A DNA stretch of 64,000 bases from a virus. Taxonomy: Duplodnaviria; Caudoviricetes. The notes below the pieces were generated by a model. It did no database searches, was not told the DNA's origin, and saw nothing but the letters and a program-made list of their open reading frames with translations. Shown piece by piece: positions 2,968 through 62,273 of the stretch. Positions within the stretch are counted from its first letter, which is position 1, and every line of letters starts with the position of its first letter. Made by a program: the position numbers and the translations under genes. The stretch is taken from positions 32,001-96,000 of IMG/VR virus record IMGVR_UViG_2706795801_000001, one strand, 5' to 3'.

Positions 2968-4391
2968 GATTGAAGAAGATACAAGACTACTATGGTATGT
3001 TACCTTTTCCGTTGACTGACGGACAGAAGTATAGTCTGGAGGAGTTCACTACTGGGACAGGACATTATGCGCTTGGAGGTGTCCAAGGGGCTGGAAAATC
3101 CACCGTAATGGCTCTACTAAGTAAATTCTATGGGGATGAAGTAATCTTCTGTGCATCTTCTGGCACTGCATCTAAACAAATGCCTGATGGTATTGGTAGC
3201 GGTACTGCACATTCTATACTGAGCCTATTTACCGAAGTATCTAGACCCGAGATGATGAGTAAAGTTAATAAGACTACCACAGCATTATTTGCTAAGAGTG
3301 ATTTGATCAAGGTGGTGGTTGTTGATGAAGCTTTTGCTATGGATAGTGATAAACTGTACACAATGTTACATCGTATCAAAAGATTCAACAAAAGGACAAG
3401 TAATCGCGGAGAACGGGACATTAGACTACTACTAGTTGGCGATTGGTGCCAAAGATTACCTATACTTTCAAACGAGGAAAAGCTAACAGTTAATGAGAAA
3501 CATGGACATTGGTTAATGTTTAAATCTAATCCTTGGAAAGAAGCTGATATTAAAGTTTTGATGTTGACTGAGGTCAAACGACAAGATGATAAAGTGTTTA
3601 AAGCTTGTCTTGATGTGATACGTTATGGTATTGAACATCGATATGAGGGAGCATTGAAGTGGTTGAATCAAAGGTATTCTAAGGAATATGATGATAGTTT
3701 ACTCTTGTTAGCCCCTACTAATAAAACTGTCACTGCAGCTAATAATTTATCTCTGCAGCGTAACCCCAACCCTAAAGGTTTATACACTGCAACAATCACT
3801 GGTAGGTATAACCTCAATGACTCACCCCTAGAAAAGGAAGTGATGTTGGCAGTAGGTAGTCCTGTGATTTCTGTAATAAATCATGAAGATGGTGACTATT
3901 GTAACGGAAGTTACGGTCATGTTACAGAAATGCAGTCCGATGGATGTTGGGTGCGTTTTGTTGGAGACCAAGAAGACACTTTTGTAGGGATGGTGACATT
4001 ACGGGAAGAGGAATCTTATATTAAGAAAGATGTCCTGCAAGAAGATGGTACATATGCGGATGAGCAAGGGAAAACTCTAGTGGGGACATGTACTGGTTTA
4101 TGTCTTAAGATTGCAGCGGCATATACTATAGCAAGGGCACAAGGTCGCACATTTAATTGTAAGGTTAATATTGATGTGGGGAATACAAGCTTATATACCA
4201 ATAAAGCCCTAGGGGATTTTGGGACTAGTGATGTGCTAGTTGCATGTTCCCGTGTAACCGATGTGAAAAACCTTACTCTAGTCCGTAAGATCGAACCAAA
4301 ACATATTAAGGTGTGTCGTGAGAGTATTGCTTTCTGGCATGAGAGTTTAGCTAAACAAGAGGAGAAATTAAAATGTCAGAATTATCTTTAG
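2964..4391 (+). CDS. SF1B (PIF1/Dda/RecD-like) DNA helicase
   Basis: Walker A GVQGAGKS, Walker B VVDEA, GDWCQRLP, EVKRQDD, YTIARAQGRT, VACSRV. Confidence 0.9.
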   Translation: MRLKKIQDYYGMLPFPLTDGQKYSLEEFTTGTGHYALGGVQGAGKSTVMALLSKFYGDEVIFCASSGTASKQMPDGIGSGTAHSILSLFTEVSRPEMMSKVNKTTTALFAKSDLIKVVVVDEAFAMDSDKLYTMLHRIKRFNKRTSNRGERDIRLLLVGDWCQRLPILSNEEKLTVNEKHGHWLMFKSNPWKEADIKVLMLTEVKRQDDKVFKACLDVIRYGIEHRYEGALKWLNQRYSKEYDDSLLLLAPTNKTVTAANNLSLQRNPNPKGLYTATITGRYNLNDSPLEKEVMLAVGSPVISVINHEDGDYCNGSYGHVTEMQSDGCWVRFVGDQEDTFVGMVTLREEESYIKKDVLQEDGTYADEQGKTLVGTCTGLCLKIAAAYTIARAQGRTFNCKVNIDVGNTSLYTNKALGDFGTSDVLVACSRVTDVKNLTLVRKIEPKHIKVCRESIAFWHESLAKQEEKLKCQNYL

Positions 4392-5095
4392 GTGATCGTA
4401 TGAAAGGTTATGAGAAAGTCCCACAACAGAAGTTAATGAGTAAAACTCCTGTAATTATGCGGCTTGACGGAAAAGCTTTCCATACTTATACTCGTGATTG
4501 CGATAAACCGTTTGATACAGATTTACACATTATCCGTCAAGGTGTATTGGAATATCTCTGTACCAATATACAGGGTTGTATCTTAGGTTACTCTCAAAGC
4601 GATGAGATTTCATTAGTACTTAAGGATTGGGATACTTATAATACATCAGCTTGGTTTGATAATAAGATTCAGAAATTATGTTCAGTTAGTGCTTCTATGG
4701 CTACAGCGGAGTGGAATTGTCTCTCATCTCAAGTAGATAGTGAGCGTGTAACAGGTTCAAATAAGTTTAATATACATGCTTTATTTGATACCAGATGTTT
4801 TAACCTACCAATCAACGAGGTTATTAATTATCTAATCTGGCGTCAACAGGATTGGGAACGTAACAGTGTCCAGATGTTAGGTCAGAGTCTATATTCTCAT
4901 AAGGAATTACAAGGAGTCTCTTGTAAGCAGATGATTACTAACATAGAAAATGACCACGGCATTGTGTGGGGAGAGTTACCTTCTTGGCAGAAACAAGGAG
5001 AAGTGTGGTTTAATGGTGAGGTTAAAACAGATTTTATTTTCAAAGAAAATAGATTGGAAGTTGATACACTGTTAAATATTACATCGAATATTTGA
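4373..5095 (+). CDS. thg1: tRNA-His guanylyltransferase Thg1-like 3'-5' polymerase
   Basis: RMKGYE, RLDGKAFHTYT, YSQSDEISL, FDTR, WRQQDWERNS motifs. Confidence 0.92.
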   Translation: MSELSLGDRMKGYEKVPQQKLMSKTPVIMRLDGKAFHTYTRDCDKPFDTDLHIIRQGVLEYLCTNIQGCILGYSQSDEISLVLKDWDTYNTSAWFDNKIQKLCSVSASMATAEWNCLSSQVDSERVTGSNKFNIHALFDTRCFNLPINEVINYLIWRQQDWERNSVQMLGQSLYSHKELQGVSCKQMITNIENDHGIVWGELPSWQKQGEVWFNGEVKTDFIFKENRLEVDTLLNITSNI

Positions 5096-6640: not shown

Positions 6641-7351
6641 ATGGTACAATTTATAGTAGAACTGCCAGATAAACGTATTGAGTTAGATGAAAGTAAAAGG
6701 CAGCGCATTATCGAGGAAGGTAACGCCGATATTAGTCAGAGGTTAAAATTAGCCCTTTATGTACAGAAAAGTATCCAAAAAAGGCTTGATGCTGGGCTTA
6801 AGACTAATAAGATTAATGCTGATGAAATTAGAAGGGTAATTGAACACTGGTATGCCAATGGCAGGGGAGTGTTAACTAAATCATTTAAGAAGGTATATGA
6901 TGAATCACCTCCGTCTAAAACTAAAGAGGTGGATTGGGTTACTGATATTGGAGGTAAGACTTATTTTAATAAAGAGTTTAGGATTGCGGTTGATAGTATT
7001 AAACTGAAAGATTTCGTTAAACTAAGAGAGAGTAAACTCTTTACTTATGGAACTAATAATACACCACTAACTACGAGGATTAGACAAATGGAAATAGCTG
7101 CCATATATGAAGAATTGTTAGAAGATAAAGATAAGGCTTTGGAAAGTAAGGATGTTGAATTGTTAAAGAAGGATGATGAGATATCTATGCTACGAGCAGA
7201 GTTAGAAGTTGCTAACTCCCTCAAACGTGATTGGGATACCATAGCTTTATCTTATAGAGAAAAAGGTTTTACACAAAAACAGATTGCAGAGCTTGTAGGT
7301 AAAAGTCTATCTACAATTAAAAGACTGTTTGCAGAGAATAGGGTAAATTGA
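6641..7351 (+). CDS. Coiled-coil protein with C-terminal helix-turn-helix
   Basis: GFTQKQIAELVGKSLSTIKR HTH preceded by a coiled coil. Confidence 0.75.
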   Translation: MVQFIVELPDKRIELDESKRQRIIEEGNADISQRLKLALYVQKSIQKRLDAGLKTNKINADEIRRVIEHWYANGRGVLTKSFKKVYDESPPSKTKEVDWVTDIGGKTYFNKEFRIAVDSIKLKDFVKLRESKLFTYGTNNTPLTTRIRQMEIAAIYEELLEDKDKALESKDVELLKKDDEISMLRAELEVANSLKRDWDTIALSYREKGFTQKQIAELVGKSLSTIKRLFAENRVN

Positions 7352-14951: not shown

Positions 14952-17541
14952 ATGAGTGAAAAAACTTTATTTTCTCCAGCATCCCCTAAACAGGCGTTGA
15001 TGTTAAAGAGGGCAAGTGATACACAGATAGTTGTGATCGGTGGCGCTGCAGGTTCTGGAAAGTCCCATATTCTTAACCACTTACCCCTTCTTGTAGTTGA
15101 CGACCCTAGGACAAACTGTATTATGTACCGTAGGACTAACCCTCAACTAGAAGGTGGTTTGTGGCCTAACGGACGTAAGATTTGGGCAGAAATGCCAGAT
15201 TGGGTACCAAAAGAATATAAACCCAAGAATATCAGGGAGAAGGTTAAAGAAGTTATCCTTTATAACGGAGCTAAGATTAAATACAATCAGGCAGAAAATA
15301 CCTCTAGAGCTAAGGATGACGCCCAAGGACAGGAATTTACCTTAGTTTGTATTGACGAAGCAACACAACATGACTGGGAATTTATAGAATACTTAATGTC
15401 TCGTTTACGGTCGCCATCTAAGCATTTCTCAAGAATGGTGATGAGTTGTAACCCCGACCCAGATCATAAACTAAGGCAAATTATTGACTGGTACTTGGAT
15501 GAAGAAGGATACCCCGATCCAGATAAGGATGGAGTACAGAGGTATTTTATTACCCTTGATGGGGAGTTCCAATGGGGGAATACCAAAGCTGAATTAGGGG
15601 AGAGGTTCGATATACCCGAAAAAGACTGGGAAAGTAAAATATTATCCTTCGCGTTTGTCAGCGGGACTATTTACGATAACCCCCCCATGATGGTTTTGAA
15701 TCCACAGTACCTAGCTTTTCTTGAAGGCTTAAATGATATTGATAAAGCTCAACTGTTACACGGTTATCTAGTAGCCGCTTCATTCGTAATGGAATGTCGA
15801 TAATTTTGTTAATTGCTGGGAAATCTTTACACCTATTAGTTGCTATAGAATAAAGTATATAATTTGGCTATAGGTTTAGATAATCAGCACCTAAGGTATT
15901 ACCACCCAGAATAAAGTAAGGAAAATTATGAAAAATCTTAAAAGTTTAAATGCATCAAATTACTGTTTAACCCCTTGTGGTAAACTCTATTCCTTAAGAG
16001 TCAATAGTTTCATGGATGGTTGGGTAGTTGGTGGTTACCTGAAATACTCAATAACCTTCGATGATAGTTCTCATAAAGAAATGTTTGCTCACAGACTTGT
16101 GGCAATTGCTTATCTGGGAGGAGAAGATTCAAATAGGATTTTTGTGAACCATATAGACGGTAACACACTAAATAACCATAAAGATAATCTAGAGTGGGTA
16201 ACTCCGTCTGAGAACAACTTTCACGCTTATGAGACAAACCTTTCTGTTGGAAAAAAACATCACGTAGAAGGTCTAGAGTATCTTAAAGGTATATACAATG
16301 AAAGTTGTGATTATAAGAACCTCACAGAAGAGGATGTGCATCAAATATGTAAGCTCCTTGTTGCAGGCTATAGGGACGTGGATATAAGTCGTATGACTAA
16401 CTTACCCAGAAGGACAATAAACCACATACGTCATAAGGATCTTACCTTGTTTCCAAAGATTGTAGAACAATACTCGTTCTCTTTCACAAAAGAAGATCGG
16501 ATGTCACCAGAACAGGTAGTTCAAATATGTGAGATGTTACAGTGTGGGTGGAAAGTTATGGAATTATCTAGACATTTAGGGTTAAACAGGAAAAAAGTAG
16601 GTAATATTAAGAGTAGGAAGACCTTCCTTGATATATCTAAAGCATATAATTGGTAATACAAAGATCAACGACTAACCCTGACGGGTGTACGCTGTAAGCT
16701 TAAAGCAGTGGAAATACAAAACACCTAAGTAAATTTATATTTAGGTGAAGATATAGTCTAGACTGTATGGTGACATATAGAAGTTCATAAGAGAACTGAG
16801 TGTGATTTGCGAACTCACTTGAATAATACGAACTGGAATGCACGTGCTAAGGGGGCCAACTATCTACTTTCTGGATGGTTTCAAGAGGTTGATAGGATAC
16901 CTTCTGGTGGTGTAATGGCAAGAGGTTATGATTTAGCTGCCACTGAAAGGAGTCAAGTCAATAAACACCCTGATGCCACTACATCATGTAAAATGTTGAA
17001 ACATGAGGGGTATTACTACATTATTGGTAATTATCACGAAAGTTTTTATGATGATGTTGAAGATGTCTACGGGAGGGTATGTAAAAGGGTTGGTGATAGA
17101 GATAATGTAATGTTGTCTCAGGCGAAACTAGATGGAGATGAATGTACCATTGTTCTTCCCGTAGATCCAGCTTCTGCTGGTAAACAGGTGTATTTAGAGA
17201 TGTCTAAGTTTTTTACTGGTAATGGGTTTAGAGTTAAGAAAGACCCAGTAGCTGGTAATAAATCAAAACTTACTAGGTTCTTACCTTTTGCCACTGCAGC
17301 AGAGAATGGTTTAGTTAAGATAGTAAGGAACACTTTTGACGACAAAACTTATTTATGGATAATGAAAGAATTGGAAGCCTTTAACGGGGAAAGGTCAACT
17401 TCTACAAAAAAAGATGATTTTCCAGACTGTATTTCTACAGTTTTCAACTACTTATGTACCGCAAGGTCTAACAAAGCCTTCACCTTACCTACAATTGATT
17501 CTCCTTCTCTCCTATCTCACCATAAGTCGAGAATTAAATAA
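14952..17541 (+). CDS. terL: Terminase large subunit, spliced (exons 14952-15764 and 16831-17541; ~507 aa)
   Basis: GGAAGSGKS, IDEATQ, SCNPD in exon 1; splice restores LLHG|NWNAR; GYDLAAT and KKDDFPD nuclease motifs in exon 2. Confidence 0.93.
15765..16830 (+). mobile_element. Group I intron (IA-type) in terL with HNH ORF in P6
   Basis: P1 CGGT/GCCG with U-G pair; AATTGCTGGGAA, AATCAGCA, CAACGACTA, AAGATATAGTC core; omega-G 16830; in-frame ligation. Confidence 0.92.
15928..16656 (+). CDS. Intron-encoded HNH homing endonuclease with C-terminal HTH repeats
   Basis: AHRLVA...VNHIDGNTLNNHKDNLEWVTPSEN. Confidence 0.92.
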   Translation: MKNLKSLNASNYCLTPCGKLYSLRVNSFMDGWVVGGYLKYSITFDDSSHKEMFAHRLVAIAYLGGEDSNRIFVNHIDGNTLNNHKDNLEWVTPSENNFHAYETNLSVGKKHHVEGLEYLKGIYNESCDYKNLTEEDVHQICKLLVAGYRDVDISRMTNLPRRTINHIRHKDLTLFPKIVEQYSFSFTKEDRMSPEQVVQICEMLQCGWKVMELSRHLGLNRKKVGNIKSRKTFLDISKAYNW

Positions 17542-57889: not shown

Positions 57890-60800
57890 ATGTCAGAAGA
57901 AATCACCAAGTATGTAGTGGAGGCAGAATTTGATTCCGCTAAAGCTACAAAAAAGTTGGATGAGTTTAATAAGAAATTAACGTCTTATTCCAAAGCTCAG
58001 AACAACTTTAGAAAGAATAAAATGGGTATGCAGAGGGTTCTAGATAATACCAGAAAGCATAAGATGCTAACGGATGTTGTTAAGACGCCTCAGATAGCTA
58101 AATTGAAACCTCCAACATCACCAGTTAATAGATTAGAAACACTATCAGGTAAAGAGAAGGTACTACCTAACCTATATAAGTATAGTGAGGCTTCTTTAAA
58201 ACGACAAAGTGAATACTTAGATAAGATTAAAGATAAGAAGGTGAAACTATCTTATGTTAATAATCTAAATAAACAAGAGCGAAAGGTCAAGTTAGATAAC
58301 AAAATCCCCTCAAGACAGAAGGTAGCTGTTAGTGTCAAAACTAAAACCCCTACCAAACGTTTAGAGTCTAAGACTTCCAAAGTAAAACCTGTACCAACCT
58401 TAGACAGAAAAATAAGGATACTTAGTAAGGTAAAAGATAGTAGGGTTAACGAGAAAGACCAACCCAAACCTAGTAGATTACAAACACTAAAATCTAAAGA
58501 GAAACTATACCCAAACCTATATAAGTATAGTGAAGATTCTCTTAAGCGGCAAAGTGAATACCTAGCTAAGTTAAAAGATAAGAAGGTTAAATTAGATTTC
58601 ATCGACAATCTTGACAAGGTAAAGAAGAGATTAAAATCCTTAAATAGACAAAAGACTAGGGAAGTGCCTGATAAGATTAGTAAAGTAGTGGGTTCAGATA
58701 AGAAACCTTTACAGAAAATCAATACTATCAAGGAAAAGGTGGTCAAAGTAGGTAAATCCCCTAAACAGCCTATGCTAAATGCCCATCACAAGGAACGTGA
58801 GAAGTATTTAAATAAAGAGTACAAGAACAAGGTTAACAGGGAAAGGAGTTTAAAGTCTGCACACATCTTGGCTATCAAAGAAAACATTAAGTTTGATAGG
58901 AAAGCAGCAGAAGCTAAACGAAGCGAAGCAAGTAAACCAGATGGTATGGATACTCATCTTAAACAACGTGAGAAGTATTTAGATAAACAATACAAGAAAC
59001 AGTTAAGTCGAACTAAAGAGTTAAAAGCGGCACATGTAGCTGCTATTAAACAGAATATTAAGTTTGACAGACAACGGAAGATGGCTGCTGCTAAGGTTAA
59101 ACAACCTGCTATTATGAAACCTGCTGATGCTCATGTGAAAGCTAGAGAGGCTAGTATAGTTCAAGCTAATAGAAAGGAAACTCGTAGGAAGTCTAATCTA
59201 GGAGTCGCCAAAACATCATTTGATAGGTCTGACTTAAACCTAACTCAATATACTGACGCAAGACAACTTGCAGCACAAGCAGCACTGAGGGAGTCTATAG
59301 CGCAAGCTAAGACTGCTGATGAAGTCAAGATGATAGTTGCAACAGAACATAAACGCCTAAGAGTAATGAAGCAGAATGAGCGCTCTATGGGTAAGCAGAA
59401 CTACCTGATGCAACGTATGAACGCATCCAGTAAACAGTTTACAAGTAACATGTTCTCTGCATTCGCCATAGCTGGTGCTGGTGCTGGTATTACTAGAATA
59501 GGACAAGACTTCGAAGCAGTAAATAACACCATGTTGGCAGTAAGTACTAATACGCAAGAAGCAGGATCTAACTTTAAGTTTGTTAGAGATGAAGCTTATA
59601 GGTTAGGACTAGGACTTGCAAACAGTGGTAAGAACTTTGCTAAGATGTTATCTGCCAGAGGTAATATGAGCCTAGAGGATACAAAGAAAGCCTTCACAGG
59701 TATTTCAGAAATGTCTACATTGTTGGGGTTAAGTGCAGAAGAAAGTACAAGAGCTAAAGTTTGTGGCTCCTTTTAATAGTAATGTTAAATGTAAAATCTT
59801 TTTAATTGCTGGGACACCCACTTTATGGTGGACAATCAGCAGGGACGTTAACGTAAGTTAACACCTTCAGAGACTAACCCGTTAGGGTGTAGATTCTACT
59901 TAGAATCGAAAATAAGAAATCCTTTTAGGATTAAGATATAGTCCACAGACAAACGCTTTACAACAAATAAATCATTGTTTGGCTTCATAGAAATGTGATG
60001 AATAATTAAATTTATGAATTCGGTGGATCTCCTAAATGGAAGTAGGACAATACCGAGCGAAGCCTCGAAAGAGGAACGTGTAAAGACTAACTCGTAAGAG
60101 TGTAGGGGACGATACTATATCCTCGAAGCGTAAATAACCTGAACATTAAGTTGAAGGTTAAGATATAGTCTGAACTTCTATAGTAATATAGAGCGTATAA
60201 TACGGAGTAAGTCATTGATTTACTTAACAATTTTGGATGAGTAAAGGAGTTGTATCGGCTAAATCCTTGGCCTTTTAACTAGCGATAGTTATCAATAATT
60301 CATTTAATTGCTGGAACCTCTCATATGAGACAATCAGCAGGGAAGACTACTCGTAGTAACCTCCAACGACCAACCGTTATCGGTGTAGATTCTAAGTAGA
60401 GTCGAAACAGTGAAAACCTCTAAGGAGGTTATGATATGGTCTAGCCCTATAGTGATATAGGTTATATCTAAAGACTTTGATATAGTGACTCTTAACGTAA
60501 GTCATTGATTTAACTAGAGGAATTAAAGCTTCAAATGGGTAAACTTTGCCCAGTATAAAATTATTTAATTGCGAGAAGCCTTAATGCTTGTGACAGATGA
60601 TGTATTTATGGTATCATTGTTGCAGGTGAGATGGTAATTCGCAGGGAAGACCCACCACCTCAAAAGAGGAGTGTGTTGATATTATGAAAGCTATAGAAGA
60701 ATTTCCAAATTACTTTATTGATGAAAGCGGTAATGTGTTTAATAGTAGAGGGGTTCCAATTAAATCCCAATTAAATATAGATGGTTATAGGGTAGTAAAC

Positions 60801-62273
60801 TTATATTCAAACAAAAAATATTATCATAGACGATGTGCTAGGATGGTAGGTTTGACACATCTAAAAGACACATATGAAGAAGGTTATGTAATAAATCATA
60901 AAGATTTTGACAGAACCAACGACCAAATATCAAATCTTGAATGGATAACATCCCTAGAAAATAACTTGCATTCCATAGAAGGACAACCCCACCTACACAC
61001 AAGGGGATCTAAATATGACGAAGATTTTATAAGAGGTGTTTGCCAGATGATCCAAGATAATAAAAACAATAAGTATATCATGGAACAAACCAAGGTAACA
61101 AAAGATACACTATTACACTTACGTTGTGGTGCCACTTGGACTTGGATATCTAAAGATTATATATTGACTCCTTCAAAAAGAGAATGGTGAGTAACCTCCA
61201 GAGACTAACCCTAACGGGTGTAGGCACGAGTGTGTCGAAATGGTAATCACATTTATGTGAAGATATAGTCCGATACCCAATGAAAATTGGGATATAACTC
61301 TTAACGTAAGTTATTGAAAACATTAAAGGAAGTTTTGCCCAACGCCATACAAATTATGGCAAAATCCGCCCAAGACGCAGGTCTAACATTAGATGGTACT
61401 GTAAAATCTATGATGGACTTACAGCAAAAAGGTGGTTTAATATCTGAAAAGGTATTACCTCATTTTGCTAAAAATATGTCAGAGGCTGCTCGTGCTAACG
61501 GTGGTTTAGATAAGGCTTTATTATCTAACCGTGTTGCAATGAACAGGTTCATGTTCTCTATACAAGAAGCTGCTGATATTGTATTCAAGTCTGGATTCGC
61601 TTCTGGGCTGACAGAGTTGTTCAATACAATGGCTGAATCTATTGTAGACTTAAAACCCTTATGGGAATCTTTAGGCACAATAATGGGTTCATTGTTTAGG
61701 TTAATTGCAGACGGTGTTAAATATATTACTCCACCACTTATTTCTATGGGTAATGTACTAAAATCTATTACCTCAGCTTTAGGTGACAACTACTCTTGGT
61801 TACTATTGACCTCATCTGGTGCAATGGTACTATATAGAACCATAGATAAATTAGGTGGTCTTAAGTTCTTTGCAATGAGAACACTGCCAATGGTTGGTTT
61901 ATTAGTCATGGCGTTAGACGCAATCAAGCAAGTAGCTTTTTGGGCAGAAGAGTTAGACAATTTATTATTTTCTAGAAATAAGATAGGTGTATTATATGAT
62001 CCTAGGACTGGTGTGAATACAGACTCAGTTATAGATGAATTAATACCACTATTGACCTCTATCAGTTCAATAAAAAATCAAGTCAACGCTGTGTCTTCTG
62101 GTAATATGATGGGTGGTGCTAAAGGTTTAGAGGCATTATTTAATGCAAATAATAAACCTGTTACGGTGAAAGGTAACGTATATATTGGAGAGGAAAAGGT
62201 TGGTGACATAATGGCTAACAACTCTGCAATTAAAGATACTATCCAAGCTGAAATAAAGAAAATACAAAACTAA
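57890..62273 (+). CDS. Tape measure protein, spliced from 5 exons (57890-59755, 59949-59968, 60236-60260, 60517-60540, 61329-62273; ~959 aa)
   Basis: Ligation restores ...EESTRA|TNALQQM|MSKGVVSA|EELKLQMG|EVLPNAIQIMA..., the conserved tape-measure motif. Confidence 0.9.
59756..59948 (+). mobile_element. Group I intron TMP-I1 (193 nt, no ORF, no P9)
   Basis: P1 GAGCT/GGCTC, P10 GTTTGT/ACAAAC, AATTGCTGGGA, AATCAGCAGG, GAGACTA/TAGTCC, then ACAG. Confidence 0.85.
59969..60235 (+). mobile_element. Group I intron TMP-I2 (267 nt, no ORF)
   Basis: P1 CAAAT/GTTTG, P10 TCATT/GATGA, AATTCGGTGG, AATACCGAGC, AAGACTA/TAGTCT, omega-G. Confidence 0.88.
60261..60516 (+). mobile_element. Group I intron TMP-I3 (256 nt, no ORF, apparent omega-A)
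   Basis: P1 GGCT/GGCC, P10 TCCTT/GAGGA, AATTGCTGGAA, AATCAGCAGG, ACGACCA/TGGTCT. Confidence 0.82.
60541..61328 (+). mobile_element. Group I intron TMP-I4 (788 nt) with HNH ORF in P6
   Basis: P1 TGGGT/GCCCA, P10 AACTTT/GAAGTT, AATTGCGAGAA, AATTCGCAGG, GAGACTA/TAGTCC, omega-G 61328. Confidence 0.9.
60684..61190 (+). CDS. Intron-encoded HNH homing endonuclease
   Basis: YFIDESGNV, DGYRVVNL, VINHKDFDRTNDQISNLEWITSLEN. Confidence 0.9.
   Translation: MKAIEEFPNYFIDESGNVFNSRGVPIKSQLNIDGYRVVNLYSNKKYYHRRCARMVGLTHLKDTYEEGYVINHKDFDRTNDQISNLEWITSLENNLHSIEGQPHLHTRGSKYDEDFIRGVCQMIQDNKNNKYIMEQTKVTKDTLLHLRCGATWTWISKDYILTPSKREW

Follow-up and report, generated by a model that had tools for sequence, protein, structure and literature searches.

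Canonical group I introns rely on P9.0 to bring in the terminal G and on P10 to align the exon, and P9 together with P9.0 is regarded as delivering this G and picking the 3′ splice site. Among the closest described systems are the phage introns of the IA2 type, those of T4 td, nrdB and sunY and that of Staphylococcus phage Twort (orf142-I2), the ribozyme structure of which has been solved. To our knowledge all four keep P9.0 and P9, often with P9.1 and P9.2 as well. The Azoarcus tRNA-Ile intron, of about 205 nt, is usually named as the smallest self-splicing group I intron that has been well studied. P9 is counted within the catalytic P3–P9 domain (PMC3984707), an extended 3′ domain of P9, P9.1 and P9.2 has been described for IA2 and IStron ribozymes (PMC4227781), and binding of the terminal G is raised by P9.0 and by P10 (PMC2588497). 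The discussion of a report on circular-RNA constructs states that the second step tolerates loss of P9.0 or P10 alone, but not of both (PMC11417360). These constructs belong with other engineered 3′-truncated ribozymes, such as the sunY mini-ribozymes and P9/P9.0 deletions, which show that catalysis is possible with a P1–P8 core and that P9.0 can be replaced in the second step by P10 or by proximity. When we searched the literature for natural group I introns without P9, the only case was the trans-spliced intron of the Prasinoderma coloniale mitochondrial rnl gene, which was modelled without P9 and which the authors describe as 'very unusual' (PMC3873408).

The tape measure gene is essential in tailed phages, and it is in such a gene that we find an IA2-like group I intron of 193 nt without P9, hereafter I1 (59756–59948, plus strand). 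Coordinates are those of the window, by which we mean the whole stretch of 64,000 nt analysed. The record that holds it is a 133.8-kb viral genome with terminal repeats, and the region is about 99% identical to that of Shewanella sp. phage 1/40 (NC_025470), a cultured isolate whose source is given in the public record as Baltic Sea ice, apart from a swapped segment at 60260–61328. I1 is the first of four group I introns in the gene. The Rfam model RF00028 matches above its cut-off at 59745–59953, 59963–60193 and 60250–60462, and below the cut-off a fourth time at 61104–61292. Introns in tape measure genes, with several insertion sites in a single gene, are also described for prophages of the Bacillus cereus group; unlike I1, these are drawn with domains P1 to P9, and the portion of that publication available makes no mention of a P9-less form (PMC2504315).

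The P1 and P10 pairings and the reading frame together place exon 1 at 57890–59755, exon 2 at 59949–59968, exon 3 (25 nt) at 60236–60260, exon 4 (24 nt) at 60517–60540 and exon 5 at 61329–62273, all on the plus strand. Exon 2 is a micro-exon of only 20 nt, of which the first six bases form the P10 of I1 and the last five the P1 of the second intron, I2; an exon of comparable kind, 23 nt long, lies among the three introns of Twort orf142 (PMC10136302). Joined, the five exons give a single frame of 959 amino acids. The spliced product is 52% identical overall to an uninterrupted tape measure relative (L009), and across all four junctions every residue encoded by the micro-exons matches; the sole mismatch in the junction region is one residue of exon 1, three before the first junction. 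The same comparison identifies the interrupted stretch as the most conserved part of the protein. Two further viral tape measure relatives are intron-less as well (L012, L013), and a protein-pattern scan of metagenome contigs for additional tape measure relatives found none.

Some features of this exon array are recorded here in their own right. Counted over the window (59755–60540), phage 1/40 and the metagenomic locus L108, introns are inserted at six distinct sites, all inside a 69-nt span of the tape measure motif that is most conserved. The guide of I2 is complementary to two stretches of exon 2 (59949–59968), CAAAC at the 5′ end and CAAAU at the 3′ end, and the intron could therefore pair with its 5′ exon at the wrong end. 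The third intron, I3, must end in A rather than G (60516–60517) to yield the peptide of the uninterrupted homologue. At L108:1970–2260, and also at L131, an extra group I intron (RF00028, 58.4 bits) interrupts exon 3 behind its first 7 nt, so that a micro-exon of 7 nt remains between this intron and I2, and the spliced peptide is unchanged. In the swapped segment, window 60260–61328 against 3861–4928 of the phage 1/40 locus with flanks 99% identical, the window holds I3 and I4, with a 168-aa ORF, and phage 1/40 holds a single HNH intron 8 nt further downstream, after GAGCT.

I1 itself is recognised by RF00028 at 58.2 bits (59745–59953; E = 3.5e-12 for the whole window), with 57.3 and 58.9 bits for its relatives, against a curated cut-off of 50 bits. 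The 5′ splice site lies 3′ of U59755, which forms a U·G pair with G59765 in a 5-bp P1 between the exon strand (59751–59755) and the internal guide sequence (59765–59769, assigned from sequence and alignment); all five pairs are kept and the exon strand is invariant in the four sequences compared. Directly 5′ of the P1 guide lies the P10 guide strand (59759–59764), which pairs with ACAAAC at 59949–59954 through six Watson–Crick pairs, likewise invariant. A P2 hairpin (59772–59789) follows, whose GUAA loop is kept in all four variants. Covariance-model alignment and pairing analysis trace a P3–P8 core with the P3/P7 pseudoknot and the P, Q, R and S elements. P3 is formed by 59797–59803 and 59910–59917, and P4–P5–P4′, with P and Q, by 59807–59841, where P4 does not vary and P5, which is short and lacks P5abc, has its stem rebuilt in the relatives. 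The P6/P6a hairpin (59842–59865) has a variable loop, GUAA in the window and UAAA or UUUA in the relatives. The 5′ strand of P7, the R element (59870–59876), has a bulged A59871 and six invariant pairs, and G59872–C59943, just after the bulge, is probably the guanosine-binding pair, by analogy with other group I introns. P7.1 and P7.2 occupy 59877–59907, a 5-bp P8 is found at 59919–59931, and J8/7 with the 3′ strand of P7 (59932–59944), which includes the S element and UAGUCC at 59939–59944, is the best-conserved block of the alignment. The minimum free energy fold of I1 with 10-nt flanks recovers P2, P4–P6, P7.1, P7.2, P8 and P10 (z = −3.8).

I1 thus shares with the phage IA2 introns a P1–P8 core with P/Q/R/S, the hallmark P7.1/P7.2 insertion between P7 and P3′, a bulged P7 base, a terminal G, a P10 and an insertion site in an essential phage gene. 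It differs from them at its 3′ end, where the extended IA2 domain of P9, P9.1 and P9.2 is absent. As the initial annotation had remarked, only ACA (59945–59947) lies between the 3′ strand of P7 and the terminal G (G59948), and both letters and coordinates agree with this; the three bases, AUA in other lineages, take the place of J7/9, P9.0, P9 and everything beyond. The covariance-model alignment it had called for likewise aligned P1–P8 and J8/7–P7 and deleted all P9 columns. P9.0 cannot form in I1, whereas I2 and I3 can form a 2-bp P9.0 from the bases after P7 and two before the 3′ end. The same annotation had argued that the P10 register and the frame fix the 3′ splice site at 59948, which is borne out by the 6-bp P10, the 959-aa frame and the identity with the uninterrupted homologue across the micro-exons. 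Use of the next downstream G (59955) would shift the frame. As I1 and exon 2 both begin with A, a junction slid by one base is formally possible, at the cost of both the U·G pair and the terminal G. We therefore regard I1 as confirmed, at the level of sequence, as a genuine group I intron without P9 or P9.0.

The sister introns provide an internal comparison. I2 (59969–60235, plus strand; RF00028, 78.4 bits) is canonical, with a possible P9.0 and a P9 closed by a GNRA L9 loop, and in both I2 and I3 a GNRA-looped P9 hairpin aligns to the P9 columns of RF00028. I1 shares core sequence blocks with I2 and I3, and its P4 is identical to that of I3. The nearest BLAST match outside this group, the intron of the ribonucleotide reductase gene of Bacillus phage phiNIT1, shares these core blocks too. 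The phiNIT1 intron, I2 and I3 all have a GNRA-looped P9, a possible 2-bp P9.0 and a 3′ extension, whereas I1 stops after P7. A motif of about 15 nt, of the GUAAGU–AUUGA type, is common to the 3′ tails of I2, I3 and I4 (60205–60225, 60495–60515 and 61296–61316) and absent from I1. In its compactness, lack of an ORF and short P5 and P6, I1 resembles the Azoarcus intron, which differs in being of the IC3 type, without P7.1/P7.2, in its dependence on P9.0 and on a P9 whose L9 docks on P5, and in being longer. The description of I1 as unusually small is apt in so far as 193 nt is small, but it is not an extreme.

Pattern scans of viral and metagenomic contigs recovered I1, inserted at the identical site, from phage 1/40 and from two diverged lineages of metagenomic origin (L108, the same as L132, and L130, the same as L131). 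In BLAST against 50,697 phage records only phage 1/40 gave a full-length match to I1, the remaining matches being partial ones to the cores of P9-bearing introns. We thus have four distinct sequences of I1 from separate assemblies, of 192–194 nt, all of which end in the P7 strand, A-Y-A and G before the same exon. That P9 was lost through an assembly or sequencing deletion is a reading for which we found no support and to which we give hardly any credence: the same P9-less end occurs in an isolate genome, in the record of the window and in two diverged metagenomic lineages from separate collections, and the linker varies (ACA or AUA) within a constant length class. The agreement between the isolate and the diverged lineages rules out an assembly artefact.

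On the four-sequence alignment, which in essence represents two deep lineages and to which the structure drawn from the window's own sequence was applied, the 63 pairs of I1 are formed in 98.8% of 248 cells, and paired cells drop to 36–47% when the partners are slid by one to three columns. Six compensatory pairs separate the lineages, one each in P3 (U–A to C–G), P5 and P7.2 and three in P6a. Identity between lineages is 83.5% for I1 but 73% for the final 600 nt of exon 1, where only 107 of 200 third codon positions agree. The covariation appears to give good but not overwhelming support to the structure. Compensatory changes, and an identity above that of the flanking exon, argue that the RNA structure is under selection and hence that I1 is likely to be spliced.

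These data also bear on whether I1 could be a decaying remnant that is not spliced at 59948, the tape measure function being supplied by separate polypeptides or by exon skipping. The GenBank record of phage 1/40 (NC_025470 93217–97599) could be taken that way, since it lists the tape measure ORF with 628 aa and, as separate entries, an HNH endonuclease and a 'hypothetical protein', and joint skipping of exons 2 and 3 (45 nt) would keep the frame. We nevertheless consider this very unlikely. The residues encoded by the micro-exons are precisely those of the uninterrupted homologue, in what is the most conserved part of the protein, a single synonymous change is the only difference seen in exon 2 among the relatives, and the helices of I1 carry compensatory changes in an intron conserved above its exon. 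From its sequence we conclude that I1 is neither an assembly error nor a dead relic. The introns are unannotated in the phage 1/40 record, where the tape measure protein appears as a truncated ORF, and our reading corrects this public annotation.

The best explanation, to which we would assign a probability of roughly 0.6, is that I1 is a functional phage intron of the IA2 type that has lost its whole 3′ domain (J7/9, P9.0, P9 and extensions) and most likely self-splices without a dedicated partner. Splicing would remove I1 precisely from the tape measure mRNA, at U59755 and at G59948. The A-Y-A tether of three nucleotides would join the terminal G to the last P7 pair, one pair away from the guanosine-binding G–C, and we propose that the pocket can for this reason be reached without P9.0. 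As 59872–59943 is the second-last pair of P7, the terminal G would have to fold back by just one or two base-pair steps, and from the general dimensions of helices three nucleotides should span the distance to the pocket. The 3′ splice site would be aligned by the 6-bp, all-Watson–Crick P10 stacked directly on P1. The core may be held by the P7.1/P7.2 wrap and the conserved P2 GUAA loop, which are candidates to substitute for the L9–P5 clamp.

Two other forms of compensation were considered. That a long P10 makes up for the lost P9 is retained as no more than a permissive factor: the P10s of I2, I3 and I4 measure 5, 5 and 7 bp although none of the three has lost P9, and a long P10 thus characterises the array rather than being a compensation specific to I1. 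That a GNRA loop in L6a replaces L9 was rejected, the loop not being conserved in the relatives.

The initial annotation had left the choice between a small active ribozyme and one that relies on the downstream introns or a protein cofactor. A possible but clearly less probable alternative to autonomy is accordingly that I1 is real but depends on a helper for folding or for the second step. Candidates would be I2 acting in cis (through its L9 tetraloop or as a 3′ domain scaffold), an RNA-binding protein from the phage or the host, an RNA chaperone or ribosomes during translation. P9 has been described as essential (PMC3873408) and, as noted above, counts as part of the catalytic domain (PMC3984707), and in engineered tandem introns a single ribozyme can be built from parts of two introns (PMC10136302). 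Searching the four variants for a tertiary element unique to I1 that could replace the L9–P5 contact, we found none. In all genomes recovered, moreover, I1 is accompanied by I2, and the intervening 20-nt exon is the same apart from the synonymous substitution, although common descent and co-conversion would explain the joint occurrence equally well. If the 3′ domain of I2 were used together with the I2 3′ site, exon 2 would be skipped and the frame shifted by its 20 nt; exon 2 is conserved at the protein level, so any help from I2 could only be structural. Help from the I4 endonuclease as a maturase is weakened as an idea, since phage 1/40 and L108 pair a different endonuclease intron with the same I1, which makes a dedicated maturase from that ORF unlikely.

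One particular version is that I1 and I2 form a cooperative pair in which I2, lying 20 nt further downstream, supplies I1 with a tertiary clamp, for example by docking of the I2 L9 GNRA loop on the P5 of I1, or with the folded P1–P2 of I2 as a surrogate P9 stack. We regard this as improbable. If it were true, accurate inclusion of exon 2 would need two ribozymes to fold as one, an inter-intron dependency that would be new for group I introns.

We favor the reading of I1 as a self-splicing intron, which also fits the finding that it is not alone in lacking P9. In a motif scan of viral contigs we found five td-like introns, each with a GIY-YIG ORF, in YorL-type DNA polymerase III alpha genes, and these are P9-less as well (L113:2500–2621, minus strand; L025:1987–2110; L116:6028–6152, minus strand; L111:1850–1974; L094:4237–4361, minus strand). 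In these the 3′ strand of P7 is followed by 6–10 A/U-rich bases and then by the terminal G; P1 has 8 bp and P10 6 bp, and the exon junction agrees with the uninterrupted YorL of SPbeta. They are assigned to group I from their S element, P1 and P10 and from compensatory changes noted by eye. Rfam gives no match to them, probably because the ORF of about 0.8 kb splits them. In the stretches read they have no tandem partner, which counts against the helper reading. A different intron, one codon from this insertion site, keeps P9 (L014). The initial annotation had called P9 nearly universal, and in this it overstated the rarity of such introns: one motif scan of viral contigs sufficed to give a second P9-less lineage, unrelated to I1. 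Loss of P9 thus looks like a recurrent and apparently undescribed design in phage group I introns, of which I1 is a clear member.

Only motif matches checked by hand were counted as P9-less cases. An automatic screen for a hairpin after P7 among 98 motif matches proved too unspecific, since short chance hairpins arise in exons. Matches in L071, L123 and L126 are likely chance occurrences in coding DNA; their flanks are without intron features and Rfam gives no match. A candidate in a ribonucleotide reductase gene (L029, minus strand, about 6730–6820 of the reversed locus) appears to end 5–7 bases past P7 and has an ORF that overlaps the core, and a search for its P1 gave no convincing one.

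Compared with the engineered truncations, which are artificial, usually less efficient or accurate and often supplied with substrates in trans, I1 is natural, predicted to splice in cis and kept by selection. It is also set apart from the Prasinoderma intron, which is organellar and a fragmented IB intron, and for which its authors suspect that a third piece is missing or that accessory factors take part (PMC3873408). I1 would be a natural intron under selection in an essential gene with a three-base tether instead of P9, and as such would show how little RNA both splicing steps require. It also poses the question of how the replacement of free GTP by the terminal G is ordered when that G is permanently parked beside the pocket. 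The system is unusually testable, in that phage 1/40 is itself in culture, the P9-bearing sister introns serve as internal controls and diverged natural variants are at hand, and compact ribozymes are sought for RNA circularisation and trans-splicing designs.

Two neighbouring observations may be added. The phiNIT1 ribonucleotide reductase gene (L134:700–1400) contains two group I-like cores about 90 nt apart, each with a conserved P7 3′ block and both with P9. Elsewhere in the window, a further group I intron lies at 15928–16780, with an ORF at 15928–16656 and a P7–P9 half at 16623–16780 (37 bits) that has a normal P9.
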